The position numbers were made by a program, and so were the translations under genes. The notes below the pieces were generated by a model that had not been told where the DNA came from, made no database searches, and worked only from the letters and a program-made list of their open reading frames with translations. A DNA stretch of 64,000 nt from Schmidtea nova (lineage: Eukaryota). Below, one piece after another: positions 3,336-43,787 of this stretch (the first letter of the stretch is position 1; each line of letters begins with the position of its first letter). The DNA lies in contig CM097882.1 in NCBI GenBank assembly GCA_044892505.1, positions 209,374,001 through 209,438,000 of the forward strand, written 5' to 3'.

Positions 3336-3649
3336 TGTTGGATCCATCATTTGACCAACATTTGATTATATAAATAATAATAAGAAAATAAATACGAATA
3401 AATTAAATTAATATATTTGAAAGAAATTCCATTAAAAGGAAATAAAAGTAATAAATGATATTGTAAAAATTATAAGAAAACAAAATTAAGATGAAAAAAT
3501 ATAATAAGAAATGAGATTTAATGATTAAAATATATATGATATGTTTACAACAAATAATTAATTAAGAAATAAATAATAAATTGATTAAAACAAAATTCTT
3601 TACAAATAAATATATAAATAAATTGGTATAATGACCTTCAGCTTGACGC

Positions 3650-3700
3650 TGATTGGCCAACCGGTTGATCTGATCAGTATAAATACTGAACCAGAATCAG
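3650..3700 (+). promoter_or_regulatory. LTR promoter (ATTGG/CCAAT-like box + TATAAA)
   Basis: CTGATTGG...GATCAGTATAAATAC, conserved at 41666-41705 in the related solo LTR while the flanks diverge. Confidence 0.7.
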
Positions 3701-4860
3701 ACAACTAAGCACTTATAATTTCATAATTTTCTGAAACAAAACTTTTTTGCAGTTATCAGTGAATTGAAAGATATGGATTGAATTTTAGTATTCTATGTTT
3801 TTAATTTTTATCATGATTTTTTGTCATTGCTTATTGAAAAAATGTATGAATAATCACTGCCATATTAATTTTATATGATTTAAGCTTAGTTTTGGCTTCC
3901 TTCCACTGTGTAATCGGTGGAAGGAGGCGAGATGAATTATTTTTTTGGTATTATGATTTAAGGGGGCTCGTGTTCACCATGAAATCGGTGGAAGGACGCA
4001 GACTTCGCCTGAGTAGATTAAACTACTTCGTGAAGTTAGGCCGTCTTCATGGTATTAAGTGTCATGAAGAGGGTAGGATTTTTTAATGATTTATTACTGA
4101 GCAGTATAGCCAGATTACTAAAATTTTTATTATCAAATATATAGTATGATTAATCAAGAACTGAAAGAATTTTATTATTTAATAAATAACTTATAACTTA
4201 TAAATAACTTATTTCTTTTTGAGATTGCCATCGAGGATTTGAAGCGGGTGACGGCTGATATTTTTTGAAGGTGAAGGGTATAGTCTATTGAACACTTCCA
4301 AGAGCGATATCGTCCAGGTGACTTAGCACTGCTAGCGGATAAAAGGGTAGCCACCAACTGAATAAATCGAGGTAGATGCTCACAATTAGAGTAGAGCAGA
4401 TTTTAAAAATCCAAATCTTTGTAAAGGGTATCGTAGGAATAAGTGGTAGAAATGAGTGAAATTCGAACATTCTCCATATTAATTATCATTTCTGATCCAT
4501 AACAAATAGAACAAATTAAAGTCATCACAGCTGAACTAAAATTATGCACATTGAACAGCAGGTAAGTAGGTCCATTCCGATGTCAGCGTTAGTGTGGGTA
4601 GCCCGTAATGACCTACCGTATCTCATATTGATCGATCAACCAACTAGTGACTAAAATCAATGAAAGAAAGAAATTAAATTTACTATCCTGATCCCTGTAC
4701 ATAGGGCAGAAGAACTTATTTTTATATTTTGTAAATTATCAACCTGATTGCTGTAGATAGCACATGTACAACTGAATACAATAAATGAGATTTCTGATCG
4801 CGACAGTGTTGAAATATATAAAATGTATTTTACTTCACAATTTCTCATTTCCGTACCGGT

Positions 4861-5331
4861 TGGTTCAGCCCGGAACAAATGAAAATACAACCCATAAAAA
4901 ATCAATGATCTCAGCGAGCGGGTGAAGAATACAGAACTGAGCTTGAGGCAACAAAAATCGAGTTAAGAAAATGCCTCAAGGCGGTCACCGCGTCATTCAT
5001 AGACCTTGAGTTGAAGCAATTAATCCGACCAATTACCTATCAACATTGGTCGGAAGAGAAAGCAGGATGTTCAAAGGGAACAAATACCGAAGCTCCGGCG
5101 CAAGTTCTTGAAATCGAGATTCCGACTGTACCAAAAAGCTCATCAACAATCGAAATTAAAAAGAAGAAAAATAAGATGGGTGCCAGACAACGAAGGTGGA
5201 AGAAACAATTCGAGCAGAAAATGATCCAACATAACGATGATCTTCCTGAAATCGATCTATCGACAAACTTTGTTACATTTGATGACGATTTTTTGAAGTT
5301 TTTTGAATTAAATTTTGTTAAATTTAGTTAA
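4861..5331 (+). pseudogene. LTR-internal ORF of unknown function (coiled-coil-like + basic region), premature TGA at 4906-4908
   Basis: WFSPEQMK...SQRAGEEYRTELEATKIELRKCLKAVTASFIDLELKQLIRPITYQHW aligns with WFAPARMK...SQRTAEDYKMEWEATKIELWKCLHSVTATYIERELKSQIRPVTYQRW at 42797-43180. Confidence 0.75.
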
Positions 5332-5612
5332 CTAACGCTTATCGTTTGTAAAATTTATAGTTTTGTTATATTTTCTTTTGTGCTTAGATTTGTAAAGTAG
5401 GTAAAATAAAGTATTTATTAAAAATTTAAAAATTAAATTAAATCAAATACAAATTACATTGACAAAAGTGCTAACACAACTCGCTAAATGACAAACATTA
5501 GGAATATAAAACCCAGATATATAAACAATTTTTCGAATTATCTGTTGATATTGTAAAGAAGGGGGTAGGAAAATTAAAATTAAAGATAATGAATTCAGAG
5601 GAAAGTAAAGCG

Positions 5613-5845
5613 TAAGTCCTTCTATCGGCAGCAATGGACCCGTGAACATAAATGGGGAGTAGTTCTAGTGAAAGAGCTCACCTGCCCATCATTGTTCAAA
5701 CACCTTGCACATTTCCAACTCGATTATCCAGGGAAATAATCGAGGGTGCTTGTGTGTCGTGAAAGCATTTTATGTTTGGTCTTAGATAGAGGCATCCCTA
5801 GAGCGTTTATTATCTTTTTGTTTTAACCCATCCAGGACCACAACA
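5613..5845 (+). ncRNA. Conserved structured RNA element at LTR 3' end (copy 1)
   Basis: Several stems with compensatory changes relative to 43551-43787; shares the CCTTCTATCGG(C/T)AGC..TGGACCC core with 36229-36250. Confidence 0.7.
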
Positions 5846-5851
5846 TAAATT

Positions 5852-5870
5852 TGGGGGCTCAGCCGGGATC
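5852..5870 (+). promoter_or_regulatory. Primer-binding site, tRNA-Pro
   Basis: TGGGGGCTCAGCCGGGATC versus the tRNA-Pro complement TGGGGGCTCGTCCGGGAT, 6 nt after the LTR end. Confidence 0.9.
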
Positions 5871-6333
5871 AAAATGGTTTTTGTGCGAAAAGTTGAATCC
5901 AATAATAACAAGGAGTTTTAAAGTGCCCCTCAACCGAGAATGTAATTGATCTTTGTGTAAAAAGTAAATGCAATATCAACAGGGAATATCAACAGACGAT
6001 TAAAAATTGACATTAAATAAAATAAATAAACGTAAATAAAATATGTCGGGACGACAATTTGATGAAACAAGGGGAAGTTTTAACATCGGAAAACGAAACA
6101 TATCACTACTTTTAACTGACACAAATCGAGCAAATAGAGAAACAAGATATTGAAAATATTTATTATTTAGTAATGAATGACAAATAGAACAGCAAACATA
6201 TTACCAATATCAATTATTTAGCAATAAACGACAAATTAAAAGAAACGGAAGAATTTCTAAACGCGGAAAAAAAACATACGAGGAATTATGCGAGAAAATA
6301 AGTCGAATAAGAGAATCCGGATTCAAAGAACCC

Positions 6334-6684
6334 ATGACACAAACTGAAGAAACAACAGAGCTAATAAAGATAATGCAAAGAATAGACAAATTAGATATAA
6401 CTACTAGATACAAGTGGTACCGAGTGCGATTAGAAAATGCTGATTTAAACATAAAATGCAGACAATTAGAGCAACAATTAACCCCAACATACAACAAATG
6501 GACAATGCAAGGAACCGAGACAGCTAAGAAATTTAAACTATGTTACATATGTCGAGAAAGAGAAAATAAAATCATGTTTTTACCTTGTGGACATTTTCGG
6601 TTTTGTAGAATCTGTGCGACCAACTGCGACAAATGCCCGATGTGCAATCTCGAAATAAGTGAAACAATTGTCGTGTATTTATAA
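6334..6684 (+). CDS. C-terminal RING finger (C3HC4, IAP/MDM2-like) protein, probably 5'-frameshifted
   Basis: CYICRERENKIMFLPCGHFRFCRICATNCDKCPMC followed by ISETIVVYL at the C-terminus, typical of IAP-type RINGs. Confidence 0.9.
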   Translation: MTQTEETTELIKIMQRIDKLDITTRYKWYRVRLENADLNIKCRQLEQQLTPTYNKWTMQGTETAKKFKLCYICRERENKIMFLPCGHFRFCRICATNCDKCPMCNLEISETIVVYL

Positions 6685-7175
6685 TAAATAAATTTTGAAA
6701 TTGAGTAATATTATTTGTAATGAATAAAATATGAGAAGTAATAATGGCAATGGCAGAAATCATGATAACAATTAATGTTTATAAATAATTTTTGAGCTAC
6801 TCACGAGTAGTCCGTTAAGCACCCATTAAGCACCAACTGATCAACTTACCCGAGATGTATAGAAAGGGTCCCATCGCGGAAATTGGAAAGCTTTTGTGAT
6901 GTGACTGATCACCCCATCTTGCATTAGTGGACCAATGCGATCTTTTTATATGTTTTGGTTGGGGCGAAAGTGGGGGAAAACTCAATGAGGTTTAGGTGCA
7001 CGCAGAAAATATAAAAAGAGAGAATAGAAAACTGATCAGTAGGAGTAGAGAGAATAGTAAACGAATAAGCAGAACGACAGTTAATGTGATAACTCGTATA
7101 AAAATGGAGATAACTCAGCTGAGAATAAGTTTATGATAACTAGCGAAGTGGATAATTGCGGTTAACCGGTTAAAC

Positions 7176-7495
7176 AGATTAGTTGAATACCCTGTATAAT
7201 GGGTCAAGGGCCAATGAGCCAGATTAGTTGAATACCCTGTATAATGGGTCAAGGGCCAAGGAGCCAGATTAGTTGAAAACCCTGTATAATGGGTCAAGGG
7301 CCAATGAGCCAGATTAGTTGAATACCCTGTATAATGGGTCCAGGGCCAAGGAGCCAGATTAGTTGAATACCCTGGATAAAGGGCCAAGGGCCAAGAAGCC
7401 AAAGTAGTCGAATACCCTGAAAGAAGGGTCAAGGGCCAACAAGCCAGATTATTTGAGAATACCCTGAAATAAGGGTCAAGGGCCAATGAGCCATA
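7176..7495 (+). repeat. 45-bp tandem repeat (~7 copies) in the element leader
   Basis: AGATTAGTTGAATACCCTGTATAATGGGTCAAGGGCCAATGAGCC units start at 7176, 7221, 7266, 7311, 7356, 7401, 7446. Confidence 0.95.
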
Positions 7496-8265
7496 TTAGA
7501 ATTACCTAGTTAGGCAGGTGATTATCCTTTAGGAAGGTATTTTCCCTAGGGAAGGGCCAAAGAGCCAGGGCGTAGAGAGCCAAGTGAATAAGTGAATAAA
7601 TTAAATTAGGGCATAGAGAGCCAAGTGAATAAATAAACAACAGAGAGAATATAAGGCAGAATTGTAGTTGTCGACGAAGTAAGAATAGTGAGCACTAAAG
7701 TTTGATTAATACGAGTAAAGATGATTATGTAACCTAGAGATTCAGTATGCATACAAGTGGAAATAGAAATAGGAGGATTTAGAGTTGACCGGAAAAACCG
7801 GTAGAAAATCGTAAGAAGAGTGAGTTGTGATGACATAATGAATAGTGATAAAATGATAATTGAGTCAGGAGAACTCTGGGGAATTAAAGCGTTTGAGCGA
7901 CAAATTAATTTGGGAGACCGAGGGAAAAGTAATGAATTTATTTGATAACGATAGATAATTATTACGACCATATAGATAATTGTGACCAGTCAATAGATAA
8001 TTTAAATAGACTAAAATAAAGGGGAAACCGGGAATGGGGAAATAATGGAAACCCAATAATGAGGAATAAAAGCGCAACGATAACAATGATGTATCGTTGA
8101 AGTGACTTTTTAATTTAGATATACAGAACAGAACAAGTCAAACTAACCAACCAAGCAATCAGAATACGATAATAGAGAGACAGGAAAATTGATAAATTAC
8201 AGAAAAGTAAACCAAGATCAAGAGCAGCTAAAACTCAAAAAGTTGATAATTCACAGCGAAATAAA

Positions 8266-10041
8266 TTGAGATCAAGAGCAGTCAGTACTACAACTCAAAA
8301 AGTTGAAAAGTCACAGAAAAGTAAATCGAAACAAAGAGCAACCAGTGTTACAAAGAAAACAAATCCTAAAGGAAGTAAATCAAGAAAAGTAATAGTAGAG
8401 AAGTCCAAAATCGAAAACAACAAATTATCAAAAACTAACGAAAGTGAAACAGAAGAAAGTTCGAGTGAAACCTACGACAATTATAATAATACTGAAGCAT
8501 CAGATAACGAGTCAATAAACCCAAAAGAAAAAGAAGCAGAAATCAATAAAAATTCAAACGAAACGAATAACGAGCATAACAGTGAAACAAAAGGAAACGA
8601 GAGTAAAACGACACAAGACAGCGGAATCGAAATGAACGAACCTAAAGAAGAAATCAAAGATAAATTTACCGGAGAACCATTTAATGGAGATGCCAGCAAG
8701 TTGGAAACGTTTTTAAAAGAATTTGGTATATTTGTAGAAGTGTGTAAATGGAAACCAGAAACGATAAGGAGCAGAATTCAGTTATATTTAAAGGACAGTG
8801 CGTTAGATCTATACTTAGAAGCTAAAAATTCGGACGACCAACTCGATAGTTGGGAAGAGATAAAGAAATTTTTCCAGCAAACTTTTGGAATAAATAAAGT
8901 ATTAAATGAAGCCTTTACAGAATTTTCAATGAGAAAACAAAAAGTTAATGAATCAAATGCAGTATATGCAAGTGAATTAAAGAAATTGGCTAAATTAGCA
9001 TTCAATCAAAATAGTCCCATGAGTCCAGAATTGATGGCAGCAATTTTTGTGGGAGGACTGAGAAGACCCGATATAAGAGCACAAGTTGGATGCCAAGGTT
9101 GCAAAACAATAGATGAAGCGTTGGAAGTCGCCAACAGATTTGAATTACATATGATCGGAAGCGAAGGAAGAATTTACCTAGCAATGGATACGACACAAAA
9201 TGAACAAGCAATAAAGATAAATAACCACATTTCGAATTCACAGCAATTGAACCGACCACCACCTCAAAGGAGAAATGAGGGAAACAAAGTACAAAATTAC
9301 GGAAATCAAAATAATTACAATACGCAAGGACAGACAAAACAATGTCAAACTTGTGGAAAGTTAGGACATTGGCAACAAGAATGTTTCATAAACTTAAATT
9401 GTAAAAAGTGTGGAATAAAAGGACATTCGGAAAGCAGATGTTACCTAAATTCATGTTATAACTGTGGACAACCAGGCCACATGGCAAAAAGCTGCCAACA
9501 ACCAAACAATCAACGAAGGAACTGGTCGAACAACGGAAATCGACAAAATTATGCTAATCAACAGAGTAATTATAACCAGAACAAAAGTACCACCAAGGAA
9601 ATACATTTGCTACAAGAAGTTCAGAGATTGACAGAGTTAATAAATAATACACCGAGAGGAAATCAACAAACAAATCAACAACAAATTAATATGATGAGAA
9701 AAACAGAAAGCGAAAATGAACGATTAAATCGAGAAAGTCAAGCACGACATGCTCAAGAATGGGCTAGAATACAAAGAGAAGACGAACAGAAACGACAAGA
9801 AAGAGAACGGCAACCATTGAGAATTAATATGATGAGAGCAACAAATCAAACAAGAGACAACAAGGAAGATATTGAGCCGGAAACAAACCAAATAAACCCA
9901 AATCCGGTAGATGAAGAAAACCAAAAAGAAATATTGCAAAAAAACGAAGAAGTTATCAAACAAAAAAGGATGTTGGTAGTCATGCCAAACGATCATGTAT
10001 TTCGATTTGACTATGATGAAAAAGAGGAAGTAGAGTATTAA
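8266..10041 (+). CDS. gag: Gag (capsid + CCHC zinc knuckles)
   Basis: PFNGDASKLETFLKEF...WKPE...LYLKDSA capsid motif; knuckles CQTCGKLGHWQQEC, CKKCGIKGHSESRC, CYNCGQPGHMAKSC. Confidence 0.92.
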   Translation: MRSRAVSTTTQKVEKSQKSKSKQRATSVTKKTNPKGSKSRKVIVEKSKIENNKLSKTNESETEESSSETYDNYNNTEASDNESINPKEKEAEINKNSNETNNEHNSETKGNESKTTQDSGIEMNEPKEEIKDKFTGEPFNGDASKLETFLKEFGIFVEVCKWKPETIRSRIQLYLKDSALDLYLEAKNSDDQLDSWEEIKKFFQQTFGINKVLNEAFTEFSMRKQKVNESNAVYASELKKLAKLAFNQNSPMSPELMAAIFVGGLRRPDIRAQVGCQGCKTIDEALEVANRFELHMIGSEGRIYLAMDTTQNEQAIKINNHISNSQQLNRPPPQRRNEGNKVQNYGNQNNYNTQGQTKQCQTCGKLGHWQQECFINLNCKKCGIKGHSESRCYLNSCYNCGQPGHMAKSCQQPNNQRRNWSNNGNRQNYANQQSNYNQNKSTTKEIHLLQEVQRLTELINNTPRGNQQTNQQQINMMRKTESENERLNRESQARHAQEWARIQREDEQKRQERERQPLRINMMRATNQTRDNKEDIEPETNQINPNPVDEENQKEILQKNEEVIKQKRMLVVMPNDHVFRFDYDEKEEVEY

Positions 10042-10127
10042 TTAATAAAGTAAACAAGACGATTCTGGGAAGGACAAAACTACCCCGAGAAGCATTTTTA
10101 CAGACAGAAGACGAAGCGGAGATAAAA

Positions 10128-11247
10128 TTGAAATCAACCGACATCTGGGAAGATTTAGAAGTACCAATGAATAAAATGAATTTTACTGTTATCCGAGAAA
10201 CAGACGAAAACCAAGATAAAGCGAAACCAAAACCGGTAACAAAAGTCAAAAGCAGGGCATTAAAGATATTTGAAGAGAGAATCAAACAGAGAAAAGCAAT
10301 AGAAATGAAAAAACGAAGAAGCTAAATAGAAGAACCAGAAAACAATGACAAAAATGAAGAAATACCACCAGAAAATGTACTAAATAAAGTAGAACAGACA
10401 GCACATATAAACATGTTAAGAAACAACTAGAGAATTTTCAGATGTAGAAAGTGACAGTGATGTCAGTAGTTTAGCAGCAGATATGCTAAAGGAACCAGAA
10501 AATGAAGACAACAAGATAAAAGTAGCGAAGACGCCAGAAAATATTCAAATAAAAGAAGATGAAATTGAAAAACTATTGGATAATGCGTTAGAAGTGATTT
10601 ATAACGAAGAATTTATTGATAAAAAGCGATATCGAAAATTTATAAAAGCAGTATTACGAATGAACTACAAAGAATGTTTACAAAGTCGGGAAGTAGAGAT
10701 ATTATCAGGATACGTCGTCAAGTTATTAGAAGAACCACTCCACGAATATATTATCTTGATAGAAATAAACAAATGTTCACCAAGAATTTGGATCAAATCT
10801 ACATGCACAAACGAAATTTATCGATGGGTGGAAGACAGATTGGGAAGTTCATATAAAAACAAATTCATATATTCGGGAAATGAACTTGTAGAACGAGGAA
10901 CGCATTTGGTAGCAACAGGCCTATGGCCAGGAGAGATAACAACATTATCAACATGCGACAATAAGAAAGAGGAGAATTTACAAGAAATCGCAAAGGAAGC
11001 AAATACGTGTTTTGAGATGAGAATTAAACCTCAATTAATAGAGAAGAAAGAAAGAATTCTCAGAGGAAATTTAAATTCACTAATAGAACAAATTATTCAA
11101 CAAATCGACAAAAATAGGAAAGAATTAATGAGAACTGAATATGAGAAAGTAAAACAATGCATCAAAAATATACGAGATACCAGCCATACGAGATATTCGC
11201 CGTACAAAACTTGGAAAGAATCGCAAAAATTGGAAAGCGATGTTTAA
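10128..11247 (+). pseudogene. Accessory coding region of unknown function, broken into pieces (10128-10325, 10326-10430, 10483-11247)
   Basis: Continuous A-rich coding-like sequence with stops/frameshifts; no recognisable domain. Confidence 0.5.
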
Positions 11248-12259
11248 ACGAGGAGAAATAGGAGATTTGAAAATCAAAGTGAAATTACCAAACGAAGACA
11301 CAAAGGAAATTGAAGTAATCGCGGATTGCACAGTAGAAGAATTAGTTGATGTTATCTATGAGACTTTATTACAACGCGAAAAAGAAGACGAATTGGAAGA
11401 CGATATTATCATAAAATATAACGAACACGTACTAGGAGATCATGACGAGAGACGAGTATATAAAATTGGTATATGTGACAACTATCAAACAATCCACGTT
11501 ATCAGAATGGATGATTCACCAAGAGAAACACCAAAAGACGAAAAAAGGAAACAAGAACGTCGAAGAGAAGAGATGCACAAATTGAGACAAATAGTAGAAA
11601 TTTATCGAAGATGGGAGAAACAATGGGATGATAAAGAGAAATGCTGGAAAGCAAAAGGAGATATATATGAAGAAGGATTTAGACCAGAAATGGAAGACAA
11701 ATATGAACCAGAAACCAGAAGAGTTTGTATGGTGACAAGAAAAGTCATGCCAACAGATTTAGATGGACCAGAAACCGCAGCAATATGGTTAGAAACGCAG
11801 AGACGAAAAGCTAACGAACTCATAGAATTATTAAAAGGAAATTTACAAGGAAAAAGGCGAACGATCAAAGGATTAGCCGAATTTTTCGTAGCAAGCGGCG
11901 AAGATATAACCAGTTTAGGAAAAGTAGCAAAAGCAGTAGCAGAATATAAACGAGTTAACGAGTGGTGCCCAGAACAATTAGACAATGTAATCAAGAAATG
12001 GAGAAACCAAGAAAACGTCCAAGAATCACCGCAGAAAGTACATTTAAAGATAATATATCCAGATCGGGAAAAGGAAGAGCTTTGGGTAAGATTTACTGAA
12101 AAGATTCGAGATGTGAAAAAGAGATTGAAATATGAAACACCATTTCACTTACAACATCAAGGAAGATCATTAGAAAACGATTTGGAAATCGGGATAACGC
12201 CAGCACAATTAGATCTCGCAAACACGTTAACAGTAGACGCAATAGCAGATCAACCATAA
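11240..12259 (+). CDS. Protein with two ubiquitin-like (beta-grasp) domains
   Basis: N-terminal LKIKVKLPNEDTKEIEVIADCTVEELVDVI...IKYNEHVLGD...YKIGI...TIHVI and C-terminal LKIIYPDREKEELWVRFTEKIRDVKKRL...LQHQGRSLEND match the UBL pattern. Confidence 0.7.
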   Translation: MFKRGEIGDLKIKVKLPNEDTKEIEVIADCTVEELVDVIYETLLQREKEDELEDDIIIKYNEHVLGDHDERRVYKIGICDNYQTIHVIRMDDSPRETPKDEKRKQERRREEMHKLRQIVEIYRRWEKQWDDKEKCWKAKGDIYEEGFRPEMEDKYEPETRRVCMVTRKVMPTDLDGPETAAIWLETQRRKANELIELLKGNLQGKRRTIKGLAEFFVASGEDITSLGKVAKAVAEYKRVNEWCPEQLDNVIKKWRNQENVQESPQKVHLKIIYPDREKEELWVRFTEKIRDVKKRLKYETPFHLQHQGRSLENDLEIGITPAQLDLANTLTVDAIADQP

Positions 12260-12314
12260 ACTTAAAGAGAAAAGAGTAAAAGAAAGTGAAGACACTCAGC
12301 AGCTAAAGAACACG

Positions 12315-12956
12315 ATGCAGATCACGCCAGGAACAAGTGCAAGACAGTATGAAACCACATCAATAAAAGTCCAAGAAAGAACTGTACCACAATCATATGG
12401 CGTAGAAGAAATCTTAGCAGACAGCGATGACATACTGGAAGAATTAACCAATTTGACAAAAGTAAAAAACAATAATATCTTCGAAAGAGTTCAAGAATTA
12501 CCCACAACGTCACAAGTAATCAATGCCGAAGATGAAGTCGAACAAGAAATAGAGATAGAAGAAGTGAACGAAATACCTGAAGAAGAAGCAAGAGGAACAA
12601 ATACAGAAAACGAACAATTAACACAAGAAATGGAAAGATGGTGGGAACAGAGAAATAATGAACCAAGAGATGTTACAGAAGAAACTAGACGAGAGACAAG
12701 ATTAGTAGAAACAGGTACAACAATGGATAGACGACCTACAGGTAGACCGAAGACGGATCCAGCAAACATAATCAACAAAACCAAAGAGGAAAGGAGACAA
12801 GAGAAATGGGAATTATGTTTTAGGAAGCTCAACAAAATAGCAGAAGCAAACGACAAAGAAATAACGCAAAAATGTCAAGGCGAAGGATGGATATCAAAAA
12901 CACTAATGGAAATACTGGCGATAATTGATCCAGAATTAAAAGATGGTGGAGAATAA
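12315..12956 (+). CDS. Acidic/low-complexity accessory ORF
   Basis: 213-aa Glu-rich ORF, no recognisable domain. Confidence 0.4.
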   Translation: MQITPGTSARQYETTSIKVQERTVPQSYGVEEILADSDDILEELTNLTKVKNNNIFERVQELPTTSQVINAEDEVEQEIEIEEVNEIPEEEARGTNTENEQLTQEMERWWEQRNNEPRDVTEETRRETRLVETGTTMDRRPTGRPKTDPANIINKTKEERRQEKWELCFRKLNKIAEANDKEITQKCQGEGWISKTLMEILAIIDPELKDGGE

Positions 12957-13300
12957 ACGAAATAAGCGACAAGGCTAAAGCACAACGCAATCGCACCAAT
13001 CTTACCCGAACTGATAAAAGAAAAGGCAAAATCAAGCCATTTAGATTGGCAAGGGACCACAAAGTTGATAAAAAAGTTAACTGAAGATGCAGAAAACAAT
13101 AATAAATATGTGATAGCAATTGCGTATACAATCTACAACCTATTAACGTTGAGTAGAGGTAAACCAAAATCTAAAACAATAGAGAAGCATATAAAAATAC
13201 AGCAAGCATCATAGCAAGAAAAATAGAACCATACGTCATCAGTAGAGGAGGATGGGAAACATTTGCAAAAACGAATCAAAGAAACAGTCAATCAAAGAAT

Positions 13301-15432
13301 ATGAAAAAGAAATTCAAAGAAATTCTAGGAGAATTAGAAAAAGAAAAGTCCGGAACAGGAAGTGGAAAATCTTCACTGAACCTGAATTCAATCATAATGA
13401 TGATATTAATATGGCTAATTAGTGCTGAAGGAGTAACGGCGTTCGAAGTATTTGATTGCGATCAAATGACATTAGGAGAAAAATATTCATTGAGAGGAAC
13501 TGAACAATGCAAGGATGCAACTCCAACAGAATTAAAGGTATTAAATAGTAAACAAATATATCACGTATATCAAGAAGCCGAATTAATAAAGACGACAGTT
13601 AATGAATGTAAAATATATAAAACAAGATTTGCTTTTTATTGTGGACACCATCACTAATCTGCAATCGTAATGCCAGGAACAGAAAGAGAAGCAATAATGT
13701 TACAAGGAGAAGATTGCAATAAATTTTTCAAACATGGAGAAGTCGAAACAAGTGATCAAATAAAGATAAAAGGAAAAGCTGGAGTAATACTACAACAAAC
13801 CTACTATGTAGCAGAAGCTATCACAGGAGGAGAAGGTTATTGTCAAGGAACAACATATCCGATATTTGGAGTACCAGCAACCAACATGGTAGTAATCAAC
13901 ACATATACGGTATAATTGAAAGCATATGAAGCATATTTTGACCCAGCAACAGCAATGTGTAAAATTGAAGCCAGTACTTGTCAAACCGGTATGTCAACTT
14001 TAAGTACAGAGCACGAGCAAATGAATGCCAATTGCAATTATTAAAAGAAGCAGAATTCGACGAAGTAAAAGGAAAAATCTTTCAGGAAGAAGATGATGAC
14101 GAAGTAGCAAGAGACAAACGTCTACAGGAGACAGTAAAAGGAGAGAAACAGTTCAAAACTAAAATACGAGAAAAAGAGGTAAAAATGAGAGATACGCCAA
14201 CAGTATTGGTTACATCGAACGCAGATATAGGGATGAGGTTTGTAAAAGGAAAACCGGCATTAAAATGTGGTGTATCTATGTTAGAAACTAATTACCCTGG
14301 TATTTACGTGTCAAGGCAAGCAGCACCAAATGCAAAACCTAAGGTAGATACTACAGACATCAAATTGCACGTATATTTAAATAACAAAATGGATTTTTTA
14401 TTTCATAAAAGTCAAGCATCAATGGAAAAAATATACTACGATCTCATTAACAACGACTGTATATTAAATCGAGAAATATCAAAGACGAAATTAGCAGAAG
14501 CAATTACAAACCCAGATAGTGCGATGCTATTACTGCCACTTAACGAAGGTCATTTTGGAAGAGTAGTTGAAGAAGTTATGTATGCATATATATGCCGAAA
14601 GACACACGCAAATGTAGCAACAACGACTAGATTACGACGAGGACAATGTACCAATGAGCTAAAGATTGAATATAAAGGAAAAATAAGATATGTGCAACCA
14701 GTAACAAGGATCATTAATCCATTCAGTTTTGAACCAAACCCTTTCAATTGTAGTAATGCATATGGACCATTATATCAGAAACCAGACGGAAATTGGGTCA
14801 TGTTCCCGTCAAGAACAGAAGTACAACCGCCTAGAGAATTCGAGCTGATGCAACTGTCAAAAAGACAAAAATTTTCCAATGTAGATGTAAATAATGGAGG
14901 AATTTACAGTGCAAAAGATCTTGAAGCACCACGACAAAATATATTATTCCCAGCTAGAAGAGAAGCGGTACTATCTAGTATTGTAACGATAACAGGAGGA
15001 ACAAGCTATCAAGGAGGACCAAATTATGAATTATTATTGTCACCAGCACATTTTAAGAAAGCAACAGAAAATATGATGAAAGCAATGTGGGGACGATTTT
15101 TAATTTTCGGACAGATGATGGCCGGAATACTAGGTGTAATTTTGATCATACAAATAATACGAGTGATAATCACACAAATGCTAGCATGCTTTGATATTTA
15201 CAAAAGAGAAAAGAAAGTTAATTGGAAACTAATAGTAGGATTTTTACCCTTCTTAGCTAAAACGATGGTATTACATGGTCACTCCAAAGATATTCATAGA
15301 ATAAAACGATTATTAAAAATACTGGCAAAAATGAAAGGAACAGATAAAGACGTGGGGAGAAAATTCAAAAAGATAATGAAAAATGAGCAAGCGAGACTGC
15401 AATTAAAAAGAGAAAGAAAAGGATTATGGTAA
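13301..15432 (+). pseudogene. env: Envelope glycoprotein, chuvirus (Jingchuvirales)-like class III fusion protein; 2 in-frame stops + 1 frameshift
   Basis: Signal peptide then AFEVFDC...YSL...EQC; ECKIYKTRFAFYCG; CILNREISKTKLAEAITNPD...GHFGRVVEEVMYAYIC; CTNELKIEYKGKIRYVQPVTRII; C-terminal TM GQMMAGILGVILIIQII. Stops at 13655-57 and 13913-15. Confidence 0.8.
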
Positions 15433-15585
15433 AGAATAAGAGGAGATAAAACTCATAATGATTCCAGTGATGACGATGATAACAATGACGACTGCGAAGG
15501 AGGACAAAGATACAGAAACCAAGCACCACAATATAACGACAAGAATCCAGTAGAAGCGTGGAAATGTTACGCACCTCCACCAACA

Positions 15586-17115
15586 ATGTATCAAGAACCA
15601 CTACAGACATTAGGACCCAGAACAATGCAAATGATGCCAATGCCAAATATATACCCAGTTATACCAGAAGATTATAAACTAAGACGATGTAGAAGTATGG
15701 ATCCGCAAGGAGATTCACACACAATTGCAGTTATGTCATCGAATATAGGACCAGTATTAACCACAACCATAGAAATAAACGGAAAAGAAATAGAGGCAAT
15801 GATAGATACAGGAGCAAACATTTCGGCGATAGATATTAAATGGATACCGCAAGAACAGAGACAAGAGATTGAAAGAACAAATGTTCATGTAATTGCATGT
15901 AGTAAAGAGATAGTTGAAGTTGCAGGGAGATGGTGGGTGAAAATACGACACCAAAATATAGAAATTGAAACATATGTAGCAGTAATACCAGCTTTAAGCG
16001 TACCATGTATAATCGGAACAGATTTAATGCCAACATTATTCAAAGAAATAATAATTGATCTTGGAACAATGAGATTAAAAGACAGAACAGGAAAAATATG
16101 TGCCATGGAAGCAAAAGTAATAAGCTCAAAACAAATGATAATACCAGCAAGAAAAGAGAAAATATGTTATGTCAAAATATATCCTACAATAGAAGGGGAC
16201 GTGGTCTTCGAACCAATCAAGAGATTCAGAATAAATATGCTCAGAGCAGAGGAAATTAACACAGACAGTCAAGTAGACAGTGAGAAAATTGAGGTTGACA
16301 AAGAAATCGTACGAAAAGCCAAGGAAATAAACGAAAGATGGGAAATCAAACGAGAAAAAGACGTATTATGGGATATACGACAAATAATTAGCGATTACAC
16401 ACGAGGATTCCCAACCAAACCAGTTATAATCGAATTACTAAGAAAAATACCAGAGATACTCATATTACAAGATATAGGAGGCGCAACCGCACTACACAAT
16501 GCCATAAATTGGGGTAAAACGGAAAAGGTGAAAGAATATTTGAAAATAGCAAAAGAAACGAATCAAAATCTCGACATTGGAAATCGAGAATTGGAAACGC
16601 CAATGATGACAGCAACACTAAACTTAGCAGATAAAGAAATAGTAGATATACTGATAAAGGCCGATTTCAACTGGACAGCTCGTGATAGAAGAGAATATAC
16701 AGTTTTGAACCACGCAATAATGAGCGCAAATCAGATGATACTAAAACATATAACCACCAACCTCACATGGGAAATCGATGAATTAATCAAAGTAGAAATT
16801 ATAAAGGAAGCAATTCGGAAAGGAAACACAAGAACCATACGGAAACTAATACAATGGAAATGGCCGAATAACGAAACATGGGTATTAGACATAAATAAAG
16901 AATTTAGCGAAGGACAGAACGCGCTATTGAGATACCTATTAGAATTTACGTGCGATCAGAAAACAATGTTAGCACTAATAAACAGAGGGAAAATAAATAT
17001 CAGTAAGAACGAGGAAGAATACAAACTAGAAATCAAAAAGAAAGCGTTATTCAGGAAAATTTGGATATGGTGCCAAAAACAATTACGCCAAGACATTTAC
17101 GCTACAAGGATTTAA
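15586..17115 (+). CDS. Retropepsin aspartic protease fused to ankyrin repeats
   Basis: IEAMIDTGANISAI and CIIGTDLM protease motifs; GATALHNAINWG, ETPMMTA, YTVLNHAI ankyrin repeats. Confidence 0.88.
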   Translation: MYQEPLQTLGPRTMQMMPMPNIYPVIPEDYKLRRCRSMDPQGDSHTIAVMSSNIGPVLTTTIEINGKEIEAMIDTGANISAIDIKWIPQEQRQEIERTNVHVIACSKEIVEVAGRWWVKIRHQNIEIETYVAVIPALSVPCIIGTDLMPTLFKEIIIDLGTMRLKDRTGKICAMEAKVISSKQMIIPARKEKICYVKIYPTIEGDVVFEPIKRFRINMLRAEEINTDSQVDSEKIEVDKEIVRKAKEINERWEIKREKDVLWDIRQIISDYTRGFPTKPVIIELLRKIPEILILQDIGGATALHNAINWGKTEKVKEYLKIAKETNQNLDIGNRELETPMMTATLNLADKEIVDILIKADFNWTARDRREYTVLNHAIMSANQMILKHITTNLTWEIDELIKVEIIKEAIRKGNTRTIRKLIQWKWPNNETWVLDINKEFSEGQNALLRYLLEFTCDQKTMLALINRGKINISKNEEEYKLEIKKKALFRKIWIWCQKQLRQDIYATRI

Positions 17116-18482
17116 CCGATTTCCAAGAAAAGTATAAAACGATAATAAAGGAATACAAGAAAATAGTGGAGATATTAAACGATCCAGAAAAATTTAACCA
17201 AGCGATAAACCAGAAAGCGGAAAAGAGTAAAAGGATACTCACACCATTGTTCAACGCAAAAATAGATTACCAGGAAAGATTAGATGCAATACACAAAAAA
17301 GCAAAAGAACTATTACCAGAATTCAAGGATACTAAATACGCCTTAGAAATACTTGGCGCGATAGTAGAAAAAGTACACGCGTATGTAAAAGGAGTGTGCA
17401 ACGCAGATGATATAACAATTATAAAAAGAGAAATGCCAGTTGCATTTTTATTAACTAAGGAAAGAATAATGCCGATTCATAGAGCATTGAGAGCAGGAAA
17501 AGACAGTAAAGTAATCAAAATCGCAAGATTAATGCATCAATGTGGATGTGACATGAATATGATAGACGAAAAAGGAGACACCCTCATGATATACGCAGCA
17601 AGAGCAAAAACAAAAATCAGAGTATTAAAAGAGATATATAAAGCAAGCGCAGGATTAATCGGAAAAACTGTCAAAGACAACACAATATTGGACGTGACAT
17701 TATTAGGTCCAAATTGGGTAATGTTGAATTTCATTAAAACGATAACAAACCAGGAAGAGATAGATTATTTAACAGAGACTGTAAAACGACCCAGCGTATT
17801 GACAATGATGCAAAACATCAAATTAACAGAAGAAGTACTAAACTGGAAAATACTAAATACCAACAAACCAGCATTCAGAATCAACAATTTCATGGAGAAA
17901 AACCAAAATTGGTGTATCAAAAGCACACTATTAACTTATAAATGGCCTGAAATTGTAGAAATTTTCATGAGAAGAGAAGACCTGAGATTTACAAACAAGC
18001 CTAAAGAAACGGAAAAGACAGGAAAATGGAAAGAACTGATGAGAACACACCTCCAAAGTTGGATAAAAGCCAAGAAAGAAATTATACAGTTCCAGTTAGA
18101 CAACAAAAAGATACCCGAAAATATAGAATTCCAAGAATTCGAAGCAAGTAACCTAGCAACACTATACTATGCAAAACTAATAGAAGCAATTAATGTCGAG
18201 GACGACATTTTTAACGAGCCAGGGAGAGATAATAATACTGACAATGATGATGACGATGAGGAAAACAAGGACGACGAGAGAAATAATGACGATGATGATG
18301 ATGATGAGAACAGTCACGAAAATCCAGAAAACCACGAACAAACCAACAAAGAAGATGAGAGTCAAAAGAGAAATACAAAGAAGCAAGAACCCAAAGAACA
18401 AAGAGAAGACAGCGATAAAACAATCATGAAAAGAAAAGAACAAGTTACAAAAGGAATCCCTTTTTCAGACCAGAAGTATTAA
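17061..18482 (+). CDS. Ankyrin-repeat protein with acidic tail (probable frameshifted continuation of the PR-ANK ORF)
   Basis: MPIHRALRAG...DEKGDTLMIYAARA...KDNTILDVT; overlaps the previous ORF in the -1 frame. Confidence 0.75.
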   Translation: MDMVPKTITPRHLRYKDLTDFQEKYKTIIKEYKKIVEILNDPEKFNQAINQKAEKSKRILTPLFNAKIDYQERLDAIHKKAKELLPEFKDTKYALEILGAIVEKVHAYVKGVCNADDITIIKREMPVAFLLTKERIMPIHRALRAGKDSKVIKIARLMHQCGCDMNMIDEKGDTLMIYAARAKTKIRVLKEIYKASAGLIGKTVKDNTILDVTLLGPNWVMLNFIKTITNQEEIDYLTETVKRPSVLTMMQNIKLTEEVLNWKILNTNKPAFRINNFMEKNQNWCIKSTLLTYKWPEIVEIFMRREDLRFTNKPKETEKTGKWKELMRTHLQSWIKAKKEIIQFQLDNKKIPENIEFQEFEASNLATLYYAKLIEAINVEDDIFNEPGRDNNTDNDDDDEENKDDERNNDDDDDDENSHENPENHEQTNKEDESQKRNTKKQEPKEQREDSDKTIMKRKEQVTKGIPFSDQKY

Positions 18483-20350
18483 TATTCGCAATAATCATAA
18501 CACTCGTGGGACAATGTGAAGCAACGGAACAAGAGACATCAGTAGAAATGGAAAGCTCAATACAAAAAGCATCAACACAAATGATGAATTCAAAGGATAT
18601 TGAACAAGTATGTTGGGTAAAAACGAATTCTCGGAAATAGCAACCCATTACGATGCATAGTCCCAGAACCCGATCAAAAAACCATAATAATAGACGAAAT
18701 GGATATGGAAACATGGTACAGGATAAGTACAATCAAAAAACCTAAAGACGCAAAATCACACAAAACAGTTACATGCCAAGTATACGAGACACCTAAAGCA
18801 GCCAAAATAGTTCGATATGAGTTCACCAATGGAATAGACCTTCCAGTACCATTTTATTTTAAAATAACAAGAGCACCAACAATAAGAAAAGTCTTACAAC
18901 AACCAAGAACCAAAATAACAACACCGAGTATAAGGAATACAACAGATAAACCAGAAGCAAAAAGAAGGAATACGACGGATAAACCAGAAGCAAAAAGACA
19001 TACGAAACAAACCACAAGAGTAATCTATAATCCCAAAGTGTTATGTATAGCACTCATATTAACAATATTGAAGCGATTGGAAGAAGGGATAGAGATGGAT
19101 ACAATGACATTAGTAGACCTAGAAGATACACAAACGACAAATCAGAAATGTTGGTTTAGAAACGACGAGAAATTAGAATTAAGCGAACCAAGAGCAAGTC
19201 AGAAACAGGAAGCAGGGAAAACAAGCAAAGTAAACAAGATAGTAAAGATAAAAACAGACAGAACTCATAAACTATGTTTATTAGAAAAAGAAAGAAATAA
19301 GAAAGGAATAACCAATTGTAAAACATTTCAAGCAGGAAAAATAATAACGTTCTTAAGAAAAGTAGAAACAAACAAAATTTCCAGAAATGAACCATAACGT
19401 TAGAAATAACGGGAATAGAACAAAACGTAAAAGGAGTATGCTGGAGAAAATACGAGAAAGAAACGAATAAACATAAATCATCACAATGTCAAACAGTCAG
19501 AGGAACAACTGCAGTACAAATAAAAAGCTTAGAAAGAAATCAAACCTATAAAATATGCCTAGTAAAGGAAAATGATCAAATAACGAGAGAAGATTTAGAA
19601 TGCAGAATATACAAAGCGCCAAACAGAGTGAAAACCAATAGAACAATACGAAAGAATAAAAGACAACAAAAACCGAAGCATACCACTACCGAAAGTCAAA
19701 CAGAACCAGACAGGAATACCTCAGTAACACTTATACTTTGGAAATTAGATAAAAGAACAGTAGAAATATGTTGGTCAATGATCCAGAGACACGAAGGAAG
19801 ACAGCCACAACAATGCGAAAAGATGAACAAAGAAGAGGAGATCAGAATGGAGAACCTACAATTGGACAAAAAATACGAAATATGCGCAATAGAGAAGACA
19901 GATATATTCGGAAAGCAACAAGAAAGATGTAAAACATATTATACACCTACCAATACTACGATCAAAAGAAGAAGCAAGAAACTAACCTTCGGAGAACTGA
20001 ATCAAACAAAGGAAGAAAAGGAAAGTGAGGAAACAATAATAGATTCTTATGCAAAATGGAAACCAGAAAAAGTAATCCAAGAAGTCAAAAGGAAACAACA
20101 AGAACGACAACAATTGGAACTCAAATTAAAAGGACAATATGGAACAATGATCAATCAGAGCAAATTCACCCAAATCAATCTTAACAAGCAAGGAAGAGAA
20201 CTAATTGGAGTAGGAATACTGGCAGTAAGCGTACCAGTAATAATAATATTAGCAATAATATGGCTATTGGAAAAAATATTTATGGAAAAAGAAACCAACC
20301 AGACAATGGCCAGGTATAAAAATCATGAATTGCAAAATCAAAATACCTGA
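18450..20350 (+). pseudogene. Type I membrane protein with ~4 fibronectin type III-like repeats
   Basis: Signal-like VLIFAIIITLVGQCEA; repeated VCW...I..L....Y.IC......C..Y..P pattern; TM LIGVGILAVSVPVIIILAIIWLL; broken by stops and frameshifts. Confidence 0.6.
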
Positions 20351-20842
20351 AGAAGTGAAGAAAGAATTCCAAAGAAGAACCAAAGGTAAAGAATTTTGGA
20401 AGCAAATAGAAGACGAAAAGCGACACGATGAAAAGGCAGTGATGATAGTATAGAGAGTGGGATATGACTGTAAATAATATTGTAAATTACAAAGCATTAC
20501 CGTATATAATATGGGTATTAATATTATAGAGTATATAAAAAGAGAAAAGAGAAAAAATAATATTGTATCTAATTTAGAAAATGAATGTACGAGAAGAAAC
20601 AACCGAAATGACTATGCCTATGAGATGGAAAGCACAATGCGAAACGTTAGTCCGATCAATCAATGCACTACAGAATCAACTGGGAGAGAAGCAAAATATA
20701 TTAGCAGACTGTAAGAACAACATTTTTGAATAATTACATAAAATAGAAGAGCAACAGAGAATAATAACAGAAATGACAAGAGAAAATCAGAGATTATGAC
20801 AAACAATGGAAATAAATCAACTATCAAGAAGGAAAGAATCAG

Positions 20843-21300
20843 AAATGAGTCATCGATGCGTCATGGTGTGAGTCTACAATGAGTCATTAGGGTGAGTCAC
20901 CAATATGATGAGTCATCGATGAGTCATCGTTTTAAAATAAAAAAATTAAAAATTTTTCTAAAAAATAACTTGTCAGAAAATAACTGAGAGTGTGATGAGT
21001 GATACAAACCAAAAATAATTTCAAAATAATAAAATTGAGAAAGTTCAAAAAAAATTCTTATTTTTGTATGAGTCATAAAAATTTTAGATGAGTCATCGAT
21101 AAAGAATCGATTGGTCAAATAAGAAACAATTTTTAAAAAAATTTAATGAGTCATCGGTGAGTCATATAAATAATTTTTTAAAAAAAGTTGTAGAAAAAAA
21201 ATTGTAGAAAAAACAGAATATTTTTCGAAAATAATAATAAGTCATCGTTGAGTCATCGATGCGACATAAAAAAATTTGAAAAAAAAGGTAAAAAAAAAGG
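20843..21300 (+). repeat. TGAGTCA-rich ~0.5-kb repeat, copy 1
   Basis: About 10 TGAGTCA motifs, often as TGAGTCATCGATGAGTCA; near-identical to 21728-22250 and 23368-23930. Confidence 0.9.
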
Positions 21301-21320
21301 TAGAAAAAAGATTTTAAAAA

Positions 21321-40878: not shown

Positions 40879-42796
40879 CTATAGAAAACCCGAGCTAATA
40901 AGAAACCCGAGTTTATTGGAAACCCGAGCGATGTGGGAAACCCGGGGCGTCAACAAAACAATTAATTAAAAGAAATGGAATAATCGAAGGTTGCCTCAGG
41001 GAAAGAAGCCTCAAACCCACTTAGCAGCAACTCCAAAATTATTTTTTTAATTGACAAATCCATTAAGGTATTACAGGAACAATCGAAAAATCACTATAAA
41101 AGGCAAGTCAAAATTGCAGTACTGGCCAGAGTGGTCGAAGATAAATTTTAGGAATAAAGAGAATTTTGCAAACTAATAGAAGCGATTGGAGACAACGCTA
41201 AGAGAAAACCAAAGATAAAACTTGAATTTACTCGGTTTTCTTGCGTACCAGAAAGGGAGAAATCCCATTGGGTGTTCTACACTCACGCAGAAGAGTACAG
41301 ACACTTGTTGGGCCCGCCAAGTGGTCTAAAGAGACAAAAATAATAGGACAATTAAAACAAAAAAATAATAAAAATAATTACCTAAAACATAGAAAATCTA
41401 AATTTAAAACCAGAATTAAATAAATAAATAATAATAAATAAATTACCAGCAAGGAGAAAGATTTGAAATTTACACCAGAACAAGCAGCAGGGGGCCTGAA
41501 ACAGAAAAATTAAGAATAAAATAAAAATAAAATAAAAATAAAAGTACAATTAATTGAACAATTACATTAAAAATCAAGACCCCCCAGTAAGAAACCTGAA
41601 TCGGAAATAAAATATTATTTACAATAGAATAAAATAAAAGACAGGCTTTGATGGACGGCCTGATCCTGATTGGTCAATCTGACCAACTGGATCAGTATAA
41701 ATACCGATCCGAAAATCACTAATTTCAGCAATTTTTACAGCACCTAATTTTGAGCATTAGTTTTAAAGAATTTGTTAGAGCATTTTTCTACAGCATCTAA
41801 TTTTGAACATTTGCTTTAAAGAATTTGAATCTTAGCCTGATCATCACCAACTATTTTGTTGATTTGAATCCCTTTCGAATCGGTATGGAACAGTAAATTT
41901 TATTTTTATTGTATATGCCCATGATTTTATCATTTGTATGAATTTTAATTACATTTTTTAATTTTTTAATTTTTATTCAATTTACCACATATATTATTCA
42001 TTTATTTTCAGTATTTTATATGAATAGATATGCTTCCTCGACTGCTCACGCGGCGAGGGAGCCATAGTCGACGTCGTGGAGAATCGTAGCTTCACACGGC
42101 GGTTACACCTTTTTCTAAAGTAGGGCCATTCAGATGAAAGGGGATGTTCAATGATGTTAAATTTTAGTAATCATTATTTTTACTTTGTTGCACATAGTGA
42201 CAAGCGAGATGAACCAGGTCGAGAGGCAAAGGGTAGGTACAAGGGTTTGGTGATCATAGCAATTATTCAGTAATTAAATGACAGAATCTAAAGCTTTTAG
42301 CGCCCAAATGTTCAAATGGCGTAGAGGTTTCAGAAGGAAGTGCCCATTCTCTATTTGGGCTGATAACGATGATCGTATACTGTATCGAGGAGGCCCAGGA
42401 TAGCCGATTTCCAACCGAAATTATCCTCCAAAGTTCGGCCGATTAGTGATCATCGTAAAGGGTTCTGATGGGAGTCCCGGACAACTGGTATATTTGGGAC
42501 ACATTCCCCGAAGCGAACTCAATCAATTAGGGCTTCATGCATTTATCCCACCACGATCGTTGGGGGAAGAATACGAAACAAATCAACCAAATTTCTCGCT
42601 GGCAAGGCTACGAAAAGCAGACATCAATCAGGAGCTCCATATTATTTTTAGAAATAAACATTAGTATCGTGGAGGCTTGTATTAATAAATAAACGTTTTG
42701 TTAAATTCGAATTGTTTTTCTGGTTGATTTTCTATATGTAAACGAACATTTTAAATCTTAACTAAAGTAGAGATTTCAACTCATTAAAATTGAAGA

Positions 42797-43389
42797 ATGA
42801 ATTCAGAATCGCCGCAACAAAGAGAAATTGACAAATTATGGAGGATCCGAAGGGCCCAAGATAAAGAAATGGCCCAAACAAAAGCTCAATTAGCCAAGGC
42901 AGAAGCACAGTTAGCTCATCTGCGCAAGAGTTGGTTTGCTCCTGCTCGAATGAAGGATCAGATAAGCAAAACCGAGCGGTCTCAGAGGACCGCAGAAGAT
43001 TATAAAATGGAGTGGGAGGCAACTAAGATTGAGCTGTGGAAATGCCTCCACTCAGTAACTGCGACATACATCGAGCGGGAATTAAAATCTCAAATCAGGC
43101 CGGTGACGTATCAAAGGTGGATCACCGAGAAAATCCCGTGTGTTCAATCGGCACGGATGTCGAAGGTCTATCTGGGATAACCTTGGTAAAGTCACAACCG
43201 GTTGCCATTGGCACTCCTTCAAACTACACGCACCTAAAAAGAAAACGGATCGGTCAAAAACGAAGGAGGCAGAAGAAACTTTTTGCCCAACGACTACAGG
43301 CCCAGGTCGACGGTTTATCTAACTTATCTGAATTGGAGCTGTTGTCCGAAATTTTTCCTCCAGAAGGGAATTTCACTCAAATGTTATAA
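42797..43389 (+). pseudogene. LTR-internal ORF (homologue of 4861-5331), frameshift near 43170
   Basis: Protein-level similarity including the basic tail KRKRIGQKRRRQKKLF versus KKNKMGARQRRWKKQF. Confidence 0.75.
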
Positions 43390-43550
43390 CCAATAAATCG
43401 GCTACCGTTTGTGCTGACATCTTTGTTATTTCCTGCTGTAAAGTTTTAATTAATTAAGATAAAAATAAATGGGACAGAATTATTGTAATCAACACAGTTT
43501 TTGTAAAAACTAAATAATAAATTCAAACAAATTAAATAATTCATAAATAA

Positions 43551-43787
43551 AGCGTAAGTTCTCCTAACGGCAGCAATGAACCCGTAAACATAAATGGGGA
43601 GTAGTTCTAGCGATAGAGCTCACCTGCCCATCATTGTTTAAACACCTTGCGCATCACCAATTTGGTTATTGAGGGAAAATAACCGAGGGCGCTCGAGTGA
43701 GAATAGCAAACATTTATGTATGGTCATGGATGGGAATCCCTAGCCACCATTAGAATTTTTAAATCTAAGCTCTCCATGATCCCAGCA
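43551..43787 (+). ncRNA. Conserved structured RNA element at LTR 3' end (copy 4)
   Basis: Compensatory stems relative to copy 1; AGTTCTA-GCGA-TAGAGCT GNRA hairpin. Confidence 0.7.

Follow-up and report, generated by a model that had tools for sequence, protein, structure and literature searches.

A decayed Burro-like LTR retroelement in Schmidtea nova whose polyprotein contains a chuvirus-type glycoprotein with a predicted class III fold

The planarian Burro elements carry an open reading frame of 4,873 or 5,140 aa, which encodes gag with CCHC knuckles, MATH, ubiquitin-like, BCL2, env, PR, dUTPase-like, BIR and ankyrin domains, the dUTPase-like domain having been recognised via HHpred (PMC6431247). 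Their env lies in frame between BCL2 and PR and matches mononegavirus fusion glycoproteins (Arkhipova and Yushenova 2019, PMC6431247); the same source terms it the first in-frame env between gag and pol, ties it to gypsy Env and to the fusion proteins of baculoviruses, retroviruses and paramyxoviruses, and mentions decayed Burro copies in Dugesia japonica. Burro1 is abundant and is derepressed upon PIWI knock-down (PMC8532177), it has been reported to carry an anti-apoptotic gene with BIR and RING domains and to support planarian stem cells (both as cited in PMC13465017), and its biology is also treated in PMC11410931. Among other envelope captures, the mosquito BEL/Pao elements named Anakin hold a chuvirus glycoprotein (PMC7642597), and the env of errantiviruses is a separate ORF of likely baculovirus origin (PMC12440569). 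Chuvirus G has been reported as class III (10.64898/2026.08.30.748148).

In the present study, we analysed a stretch of 64,000 nucleotides of Schmidtea nova DNA (the window), in which a first-pass annotation had placed a chuvirus-like fusion glycoprotein ahead of the protease of a Gypsy-like element and had taken the gene order as unusual. That order is not new, the env between BCL2 and PR having been published for planarian Burro in 2019 (PMC6431247). The locus is a Burro-like env region, likened to Burro by the published layout and not by Burro1 or GYPSM1 sequence. We consider it very probable that a decayed, 3'-truncated Burro-like LTR retroelement with env inside one long polyprotein occupies ~3336-20830 (~17.5 kb), and its features are as follows.

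3336..5845, plus strand: 5' LTR, 2.5 kb, termini TGTTG...CAACA read directly; related solo LTR at 41306-43787
5852..5869, plus strand: PBS-like motif, 6 nt behind the LTR, the sole TGGGGGCTC match in the window
6181..6684, plus strand: accessory ORF 5' of gag with a C3HC4 RING finger (zf-C3HC4_3, E 1.2e-11)
7130..7489, no strand: leader tandem array of a 45-bp repeat (family D2, 6 overlapping copies, 45-nt spacing)
8176..10041, plus strand: gag with three CCHC knuckles (Retrotrans_gag E 1.1e-4; zf-CCHC E 6.4e-11, 2 scored stretches; three motifs in the translation)
10020..12956, plus strand: broken polyprotein pieces from gag to Bcl-2 (ORF list), with probable ubiquitin/SUMO-like folds in 11153-12259
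12966..13290, plus strand: Bcl-2-like domain, BH1- and BH2-like parts in two frames (PDB rows; pooled profile; relative P0003)
13388..13444, plus strand: hydrophobic helix just before the env start motif (hydropathy 1.97), putative internal signal peptide
13445..15114, plus strand: ectodomain of a predicted class III (gB-like) fusion glycoprotein (PF24664; predicted models, Foldseek), with two stops and a frame change near 14000
15115..15171, plus strand: env transmembrane anchor (hydropathy 2.57; helix in the predicted model)
15430..15432, plus strand: TAA separating the env tail from the protease, interpreted as damage from decay; linker open in relatives
15763..16035, plus strand: retropepsin (DTGA; RVP E 6.1e-9)
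16465..17633, plus strand: ankyrin repeats in two frames (Ank_2 E 1.2e-10 and 0.005)
18621..20350, plus strand: three FN3-like repeats and a terminal membrane helix (20204-20260, hydropathy 2.96), putative C-terminal module of the polyprotein
20826..20850, no strand: approximate right end, at the junction to an unrelated repeat unit; a short identical stretch is common with the repeat at ~21768
41306..43787, plus strand: solo LTR (2482 nt) from a related family, its flanks bearing the 4-bp target duplication CACT

Architecture of the element and reading frame of env

Alignment of the 5' LTR with the solo LTR gave 62% identity across 2293 aligned nt, at a score of 1110 where three shuffles scored 607-667; locally the identity rises to 81% over 204 nt. 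Both hold a similar short ORF (4909-5331 and 42794-43180; 55% identity over 77 aa, no Pfam match), apparently a conserved coding stretch within the LTR. The PBS-like motif is presumably of the tRNA-Pro type, and no tRNA gene was found in 5600-64000 for comparison with it. In the accessory ORF a RING finger was found and no BIR. Of 8176-20350, 97% is covered by long ORFs on the plus strand; the figure is 35% for the opposite strand and 5% (maximum 14%) in 50 simulations. The AT skew of 0.29-0.50, a strong A bias of the coding strand, sharply outlines the coding span of the element (8000-20500).

Between gag and env lie ~3.1 kb of extra coding pieces. The ubiquitin-like signal in 11153-12259 consists of OTU1_UBXL at E 0.046 (Pfam) and of Atlas matches mainly to ubiquitin and Rad60-SLD (0.81-0.85), which serve as a lead, and PDB sequences gave no supporting match; ubiquitin/SUMO-like folds are probable in this region. 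For the Bcl-2 piece of the window alone, 19 of 19 PDB rows were Bcl-xL, but at E ~1, and the ORF at 12966 gave no significant match to the relative P0003 in a direct BLASTP. A five-row profile joining the window pieces with three relatives reached Bcl-xL at E 1.3e-4, P0003 itself matched Pfam Bcl-2 at E 1e-3, and the Bcl-2-to-env junction can be aligned with P0003 and P0006. Further downstream, the protease-to-ankyrin stretch matches P0156 (1664-1914) at E 1e-6, and the FN3 repeats scored 0.90 in the Atlas, with recognition below threshold. No Pfam match to MATH, BIR or dUTPase was obtained (E<=0.1 for 12 main ORFs and E<=1 for 4 pieces, the short broken pieces being partly covered).

As for env itself, ATG 13301, TAA 15430-32 and the stop-free stretch running in the same frame from 15433 to the protease were all found as first annotated. 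The span is not one ORF, however, since it is interrupted by in-frame stops at 13655-57 and 13913-15 and by a frame change between ~13969 and 14044. Three consecutive pieces spanning 13175-15432 match the Pfam family Monjiviricetes_fusion (PF24664):

13175-13654: piece 1, E 5.3e-8, profile positions 5-89
13658-13912: piece 2, E 0.0055, profile positions 95-176
13969-15429: piece 3, E 3.9e-48, profile positions 244-579

The curated cut-off of 27 bits was exceeded (164 and 31.7 bits), and the N-terminal env (13175-14044), its stops read as X, matched at E 1.2e-18 and 66.9 bits. This glycoprotein match is far beyond chance, and the window's own cysteines coincide with four near-invariant cysteines of the family. 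With gag upstream (8176-10041) and the retropepsin downstream (~15763-16035), both recognised by Pfam, the placement of the glycoprotein between gag and protease was confirmed. The frame is open already 42 codons 5' of ATG 13301, and that stretch contains the Bcl-2 BH2-like motif; ATG 13301 was rejected as a gene start, given this open frame and the upstream extension of the relatives. Because the reading frame of the ATG is already open at the Bcl-2 motif, and because 12 of the 20 closest relatives continue from env into the protease with no stop between, env is no separate gene.

Other repeats and mobile remains lie around the element. The LTR start lies inside a 25-bp satellite (2962-3336), the orientation of which flips near 3225; both this satellite and a ~500-bp repeat unit reappear beyond the element's right end (20837-23900), and 138 nt match in inverted orientation (2962-3099 and 22864-23001). 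A Gypsy-type gag/RNase H/integrase fragment lies on the minus strand at 430-2450, the C-terminal end of a probable non-LTR element was recognised by eye at 24712-25995, and a mariner-like HTH piece occupies 26162-26722. At 46202-47634 stands a Tc1/IS630-type transposon with a DDE_3 transposase ORF of 364 aa (E 2e-30) and inverted repeats of 132 nt (99%); an integrase zinc-finger piece lies at 47492-47869 on the minus strand. The region 48776-62125 is a large, near-perfect inverted duplication (arms of 3512, 1253, 859 and 821 nt, 98-100%). A family B DNA polymerase (DNA_pol_B_2, E 1e-19) occurs in it twice, in copies that are interrupted by stops and face each other across a stretch of N; the structure represents either a Polinton-like fold-back or an assembly artefact.

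Fold class, relatives and lineage of env

The unbroken C-terminal env piece (14044-15429) was modelled from a 108-row alignment with a pLDDT of 81.9, and shows in the model a 48-residue central helix flanked by beta-rich parts. In a Foldseek search of the PDB, every listed row for this model was herpesvirus gB (best E 2.9e-4; 1 of 178 below 0.001). P0003, a natural relative with the whole ectodomain, 42-46% identical to the window, gave a model with a pLDDT of 80.5, for which the listed PDB rows were again all gB (best E 1.9e-14); in BFVD it matched G proteins of the chu, xinmo and related types, best of all that of Tacheng tick virus 4 (E 2e-41). The env family profile placed gB in the top 30 of 32 rows of PDB sequences (best E 0.0017), a weak match over the central helix. 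The likeness to gB is one of distant shape, with a low TM-score (0.2-0.34 to query) and 9-16% identity, and in a wide VIA fold search coiled coils stood level with three gB chains (Z ~6). Taken together, the models predict that env is a class III fusogen with a herpesvirus gB-like fold. Thus, the call of a chuvirus-like fusion glycoprotein was borne out by Pfam and by the structural matches to gB (PDB) and chuvirus-type G (BFVD), the comparison with class III fusogens having been its proposed check. The first env stop (13655-57) falls at a hairpin tip of the P0003 model, a likely fusion loop. Errantivirus (gypsy) Env belongs to class I; a gypsy/baculovirus-F-type env was considered for the locus and rejected, no such Pfam or fold match being found for the window or its relatives. 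In a literature search that had most subscription journals outside its reach, no paper was found that addresses where Burro env comes from or to which fold class it belongs, and the gB-like shape of Burro-type env appears to be first assigned here.

A search of representative proteins with env returned 678 matches, 20 of them at E<=1e-30. Env and an aspartic protease share one protein in 12 of these 20 (P0002, P0005, P0006, P0007, P0008, P0009, P0010, P0012, P0014, P0018, P0019 and P0020); five are fragments ending within the ectodomain, and three (P0003, P0015, P0017) stop shortly behind the anchor, where a true stop or a contig end is alike possible. The same fusion was found in P0004, P0025, P0029, P0100, P0111, P0154, P0156 and P0167. 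Signs of gag stand upstream of env in P0004, P0005, P0010, P0014 and P0025, RT and RNase H follow the protease in seven relatives, integrase too in six of those seven (domains RT_RNaseH and Integrase_H2C2), and in P0156 (4844 aa) ankyrins follow the protease, as in the window. The membrane motif of env and the motif of the protease are 239 aa apart in the window; among the 18 relatives that allowed a measurement, this spacing is 131-391 aa in 16. In the relatives' protein sequences, then, env appears in one chain with protease and RT. The term Gypsy-like for the element holds by way of these relatives, which carry RT, RNase H and integrase, and not by way of the copy itself, since it has no RT.

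Several observations accompany this set. Protease-like D[TS]G motifs number seven in P0156, five in P0005 and three in P0008, some of them after the integrase, against one in the window. P0009, an env-protease-RT-integrase polyprotein, is filed under Flavobacteriaceae from a metagenome bin and is probably contamination by animal DNA, and P0085 and P0146 look like chance fusions. No loci related to env or to P0133 were found in viral_contigs, and no related loci in metagenome_contigs.

The env trees were sampled from the best 150 of the 678 matches. In a 125-row tree (40 of 165 rows, short fragments and near-duplicates, left out) the window fell within a 16-row branch with SH-aLRT 99, comprising 13 env-protease rows together with P0003, P0015 and P0017; env-protease rows also formed one branch in a 43-row mixture-model tree by quick search (SH-aLRT 99) and in a careful 25-row tree (support 100/98). 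Forcing these rows together with the env of P0048 and P0150 was rejected on the 25-row tree (p-AU 8.4e-6); these two we take to be Pao-linked by their DUF5641 and DUF1758 domains, respectively. The proposal of an independent env capture is supported by this separation in three trees. For seven relatives in which RT-RNase H and env trees were compared, both strongly supported RT splits recur in the env tree, with identities of 46-78% for RT and 22-61% for env. The trees are consistent with a single old env capture, later inherited with RT.

The trees leave a donor within Chuviridae as no more than possible: the glycoprotein is of chuvirus type, but the three named chu-type viruses lie farther out, outside the env branch. 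A profile search for named G proteins returned two proteins. The sister rows of the env branch are stand-alone G proteins with no names, some on ~10 kb contigs. The P0133 cluster (75 members), P0056 and P0184 are such stand-alone sister rows, mostly on ~10 kb contigs, and possibly represent an undescribed virus group near the env donor. Outside the env branch, P0150 has env followed by an in-frame DUF1758-type protease; this single case, either a second instance of the order or a nested read-through, cuts against uniqueness.

Decay of the copy and alternative readings

The polyprotein frame suffers at least 13 breaks, of which at least five are in-frame stops (12954, 12963, 13655, 13913 and 15430). 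No RT, RNase H or integrase was found in the element, either by tblastn with six relatives as queries (E<=1) or when 2633 peptides were searched with profiles built from 6-7 relatives; the matches of these searches in the window were confined to unrelated minus-strand fragments at ~430-1870 and 45800-47900. The integrase at 751-1483 was rejected as part of the element, lying on the opposite strand and outside the LTR. Furthermore, self-comparison revealed no second LTR copy at the right end of the element. Since RT, RNase H, integrase and a second LTR were looked for and not found, the copy is not filed as an autonomous Burro or Gypsy element. It is a defective, dead, 3'-truncated Burro-like derivative.

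A different account of the missing pol is that the copy belongs to a separate non-autonomous family, from which RT, RNase H and integrase disappeared long ago while gag, env, protease and the accessory domains were kept, and which relies on full-length helpers for its copying. The complete lack of pol traces between the ankyrins and the terminal membrane module (tblastn, profiles), the continuation of the frame to a plausible polyprotein end, and the presence of about a fifth (19-20%) of the window's words in four runs of one study would all fit such a family; no RNA run was among the matches listed. The same picture, however, arises from one internal deletion in a single dead copy, and this copy is in addition 3'-truncated and broken in many places. 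We therefore regard a separate family as unlikely, and prefer decay of a Burro-like element.

Could env, as the first-pass annotation would allow, be an independent gene that stops at TAA 15430, with the protease made by programmed read-through? The single stop in a shared frame, with an open linker behind it, invites the idea, as do the complete anchor and basic tail of ~85 residues that the stop leaves and the early ends of P0003, P0015 and P0017 behind the anchor. Yet the env-protease linker is open in those 12 of the 20 closest relatives, env itself holds two further TAA stops and a frame change, and the context TAA-AGA is not known to be among the leaky stop contexts. Additionally, ORF1 of Burro runs in a single frame through 4,873 or 5,140 aa (PMC6431247), and 5600-21000 gave no Rfam match, hence no described read-through or frameshift RNA there. 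Read-through is accordingly improbable, and TAA 15430 is most likely no gene boundary but a product of decay in this copy, like its many other breaks. The relatives are only 25-46% identical to the window env, and so tell how the ancestor was built, not whether sister copies have the TAA.

The breaks might also be sequencing or assembly errors in an intact, expressed polyprotein gene, considering that in many of them the frame shifts within a strand very rich in A (AT skew 0.3-0.5) and that the 97% ORF cover suggests recent coding. At least five of the breaks are in-frame stops, though, and the pol core and the 3' LTR are wholly missing, which leaves this explanation slightly less credible still than read-through. 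Finally, a chuvirus-like G inserted by chance into a dead Gypsy element, as an ordinary endogenous viral element, would have precedents in the G-derived insertions common next to LTR fragments in arthropods (PMC10084718) and in the chance-looking P0085 and P0146, but it is refuted by a position and frame that recur in relatives whose RTs are only 46-78% alike, by the single branch of their env proteins and by the Bcl-2-to-env junction aligning with P0003 and P0006, and we give it hardly any weight.

Proposed element and comparison with known systems

The working element behind such a copy would encode one polyprotein in the order gag, ubiquitin-like, Bcl-2-like, env, protease(s), ankyrin, RT, RNase H, integrase and a C-terminal membrane module. 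The hydrophobic helix behind the Bcl-2-like domain would act as an internal signal peptide and thread the env ectodomain into the ER, where signal peptidase would liberate its N-terminus; the anchor at 15115-15171 would then stop transfer and return protease and pol to the cytosol, and the retropepsin would cut these free, so that a fusogen-coated particle might be made from a single reading frame. A similar helix precedes the [YF]DC motif in 14 of 14 relatives by eye and in 7 of 9 by a hydropathy threshold, and in the stand-alone G P0030 the corresponding helix is at the N-terminus. Bcl-2 proteins have a tail anchor at the position matching this helix, and the helix may double as Bcl-2 tail anchor and env signal peptide. 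As to origin, a negative-strand RNA virus bearing a chuvirus-type G would have donated this env in a single ancient event, independent of the capture in the Pao element Anakin, and env would since have been inherited with RT.

At the other end of the polyprotein, a signal-like helix and a later membrane helix were seen in all five relatives with sequence beyond the integrase (P0008, P0009, P0020, P0154 and P0156), and an FN3-like motif in four of the five. When these tails and the window were pooled in one profile, all 7 rows retrieved were receptors that carry FN3 (best E 0.008). Direct comparison of the window's FN3-like repeats with the relatives' tails gave no homology, by profiles in both directions and by BLASTP, and the link between them is accordingly one of topology and motif. 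A second membrane or surface protein at the polyprotein end is possible, and we treat it as a lead.

The locus by itself changes little, because the gene order is in print and the copy is dead. What is new here is an env predicted to be class III and not of gypsy type, one env lineage inherited with RT and apart from Pao-linked env, a putative internal signal peptide and a possible second membrane protein. With a gB-like class III env, the envelope of Burro-like elements would come from negative-strand RNA viruses, apart from errantiviruses and Anakin, which would add one more independent route from retrotransposon to enveloped particle, and a conserved internal signal peptide would account for the placement of env within gag-pol. 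Very tentatively, Burro-like elements may be old, enveloped, infectious Metaviridae with a one-polyprotein virion processed by signal peptidase and their own protease, bearing a class III fusogen before pol and an FN3-type attachment protein after integrase; with RT identities as low as 46%, the lineage would extend beyond the Burro families described so far, and it would have given rise to derivatives that depend on helpers, this copy among them, which keep gag, env, protease and the FN3 module while lacking RT and integrase. Given the abundance of Burro1, its PIWI control and its stem-cell role, its passage between cells in particles is a testable question.

Compared with Burro/GYPSM1, the locus shares the three-knuckle gag, perhaps the ubiquitin-like domain (a weak signal here), the Bcl-2-like domain, the env between Bcl-2 and protease and the ankyrins, as well as an upstream accessory ORF, tandem repeats, a long LTR and A/T-rich host DNA. 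Unlike Burro, this copy lacks RT, RNase H, integrase and 3' LTR, spans ~17.5 kb with one 2.5-kb LTR against more than 30 kb, shows no detected MATH, BIR or dUTPase, and has RING only in its accessory ORF. It has an FN3-like membrane module that is absent from the Burro description in section 7 of PMC6431247, and its env is predicted to be gB-like class III, whereas that source makes the link to gypsy Env.

With Anakin the locus has in common a PF24664 glycoprotein captured by an LTR retroelement, and differs from it in superfamily and in its separate env branch (p-AU 8.4e-6); in the Pao-linked P0048, G stands behind the Pao integrase-end domain, whereas here env is ahead of the protease. An env within a Metaviridae-type element is likewise a trait of errantiviruses, though neither the window nor its relatives matched the errantivirus Env family. 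Herpesvirus gB is a fold relative only. The viral G of Jingchuvirales, Xinmoviridae and related Monjiviricetes shares with our env the Pfam family, the cysteine pattern, the type I topology and the best BFVD matches, and is set apart from it by an identity of 22-30% and by the place of env here within a polyprotein, behind what is probably an internal signal peptide.
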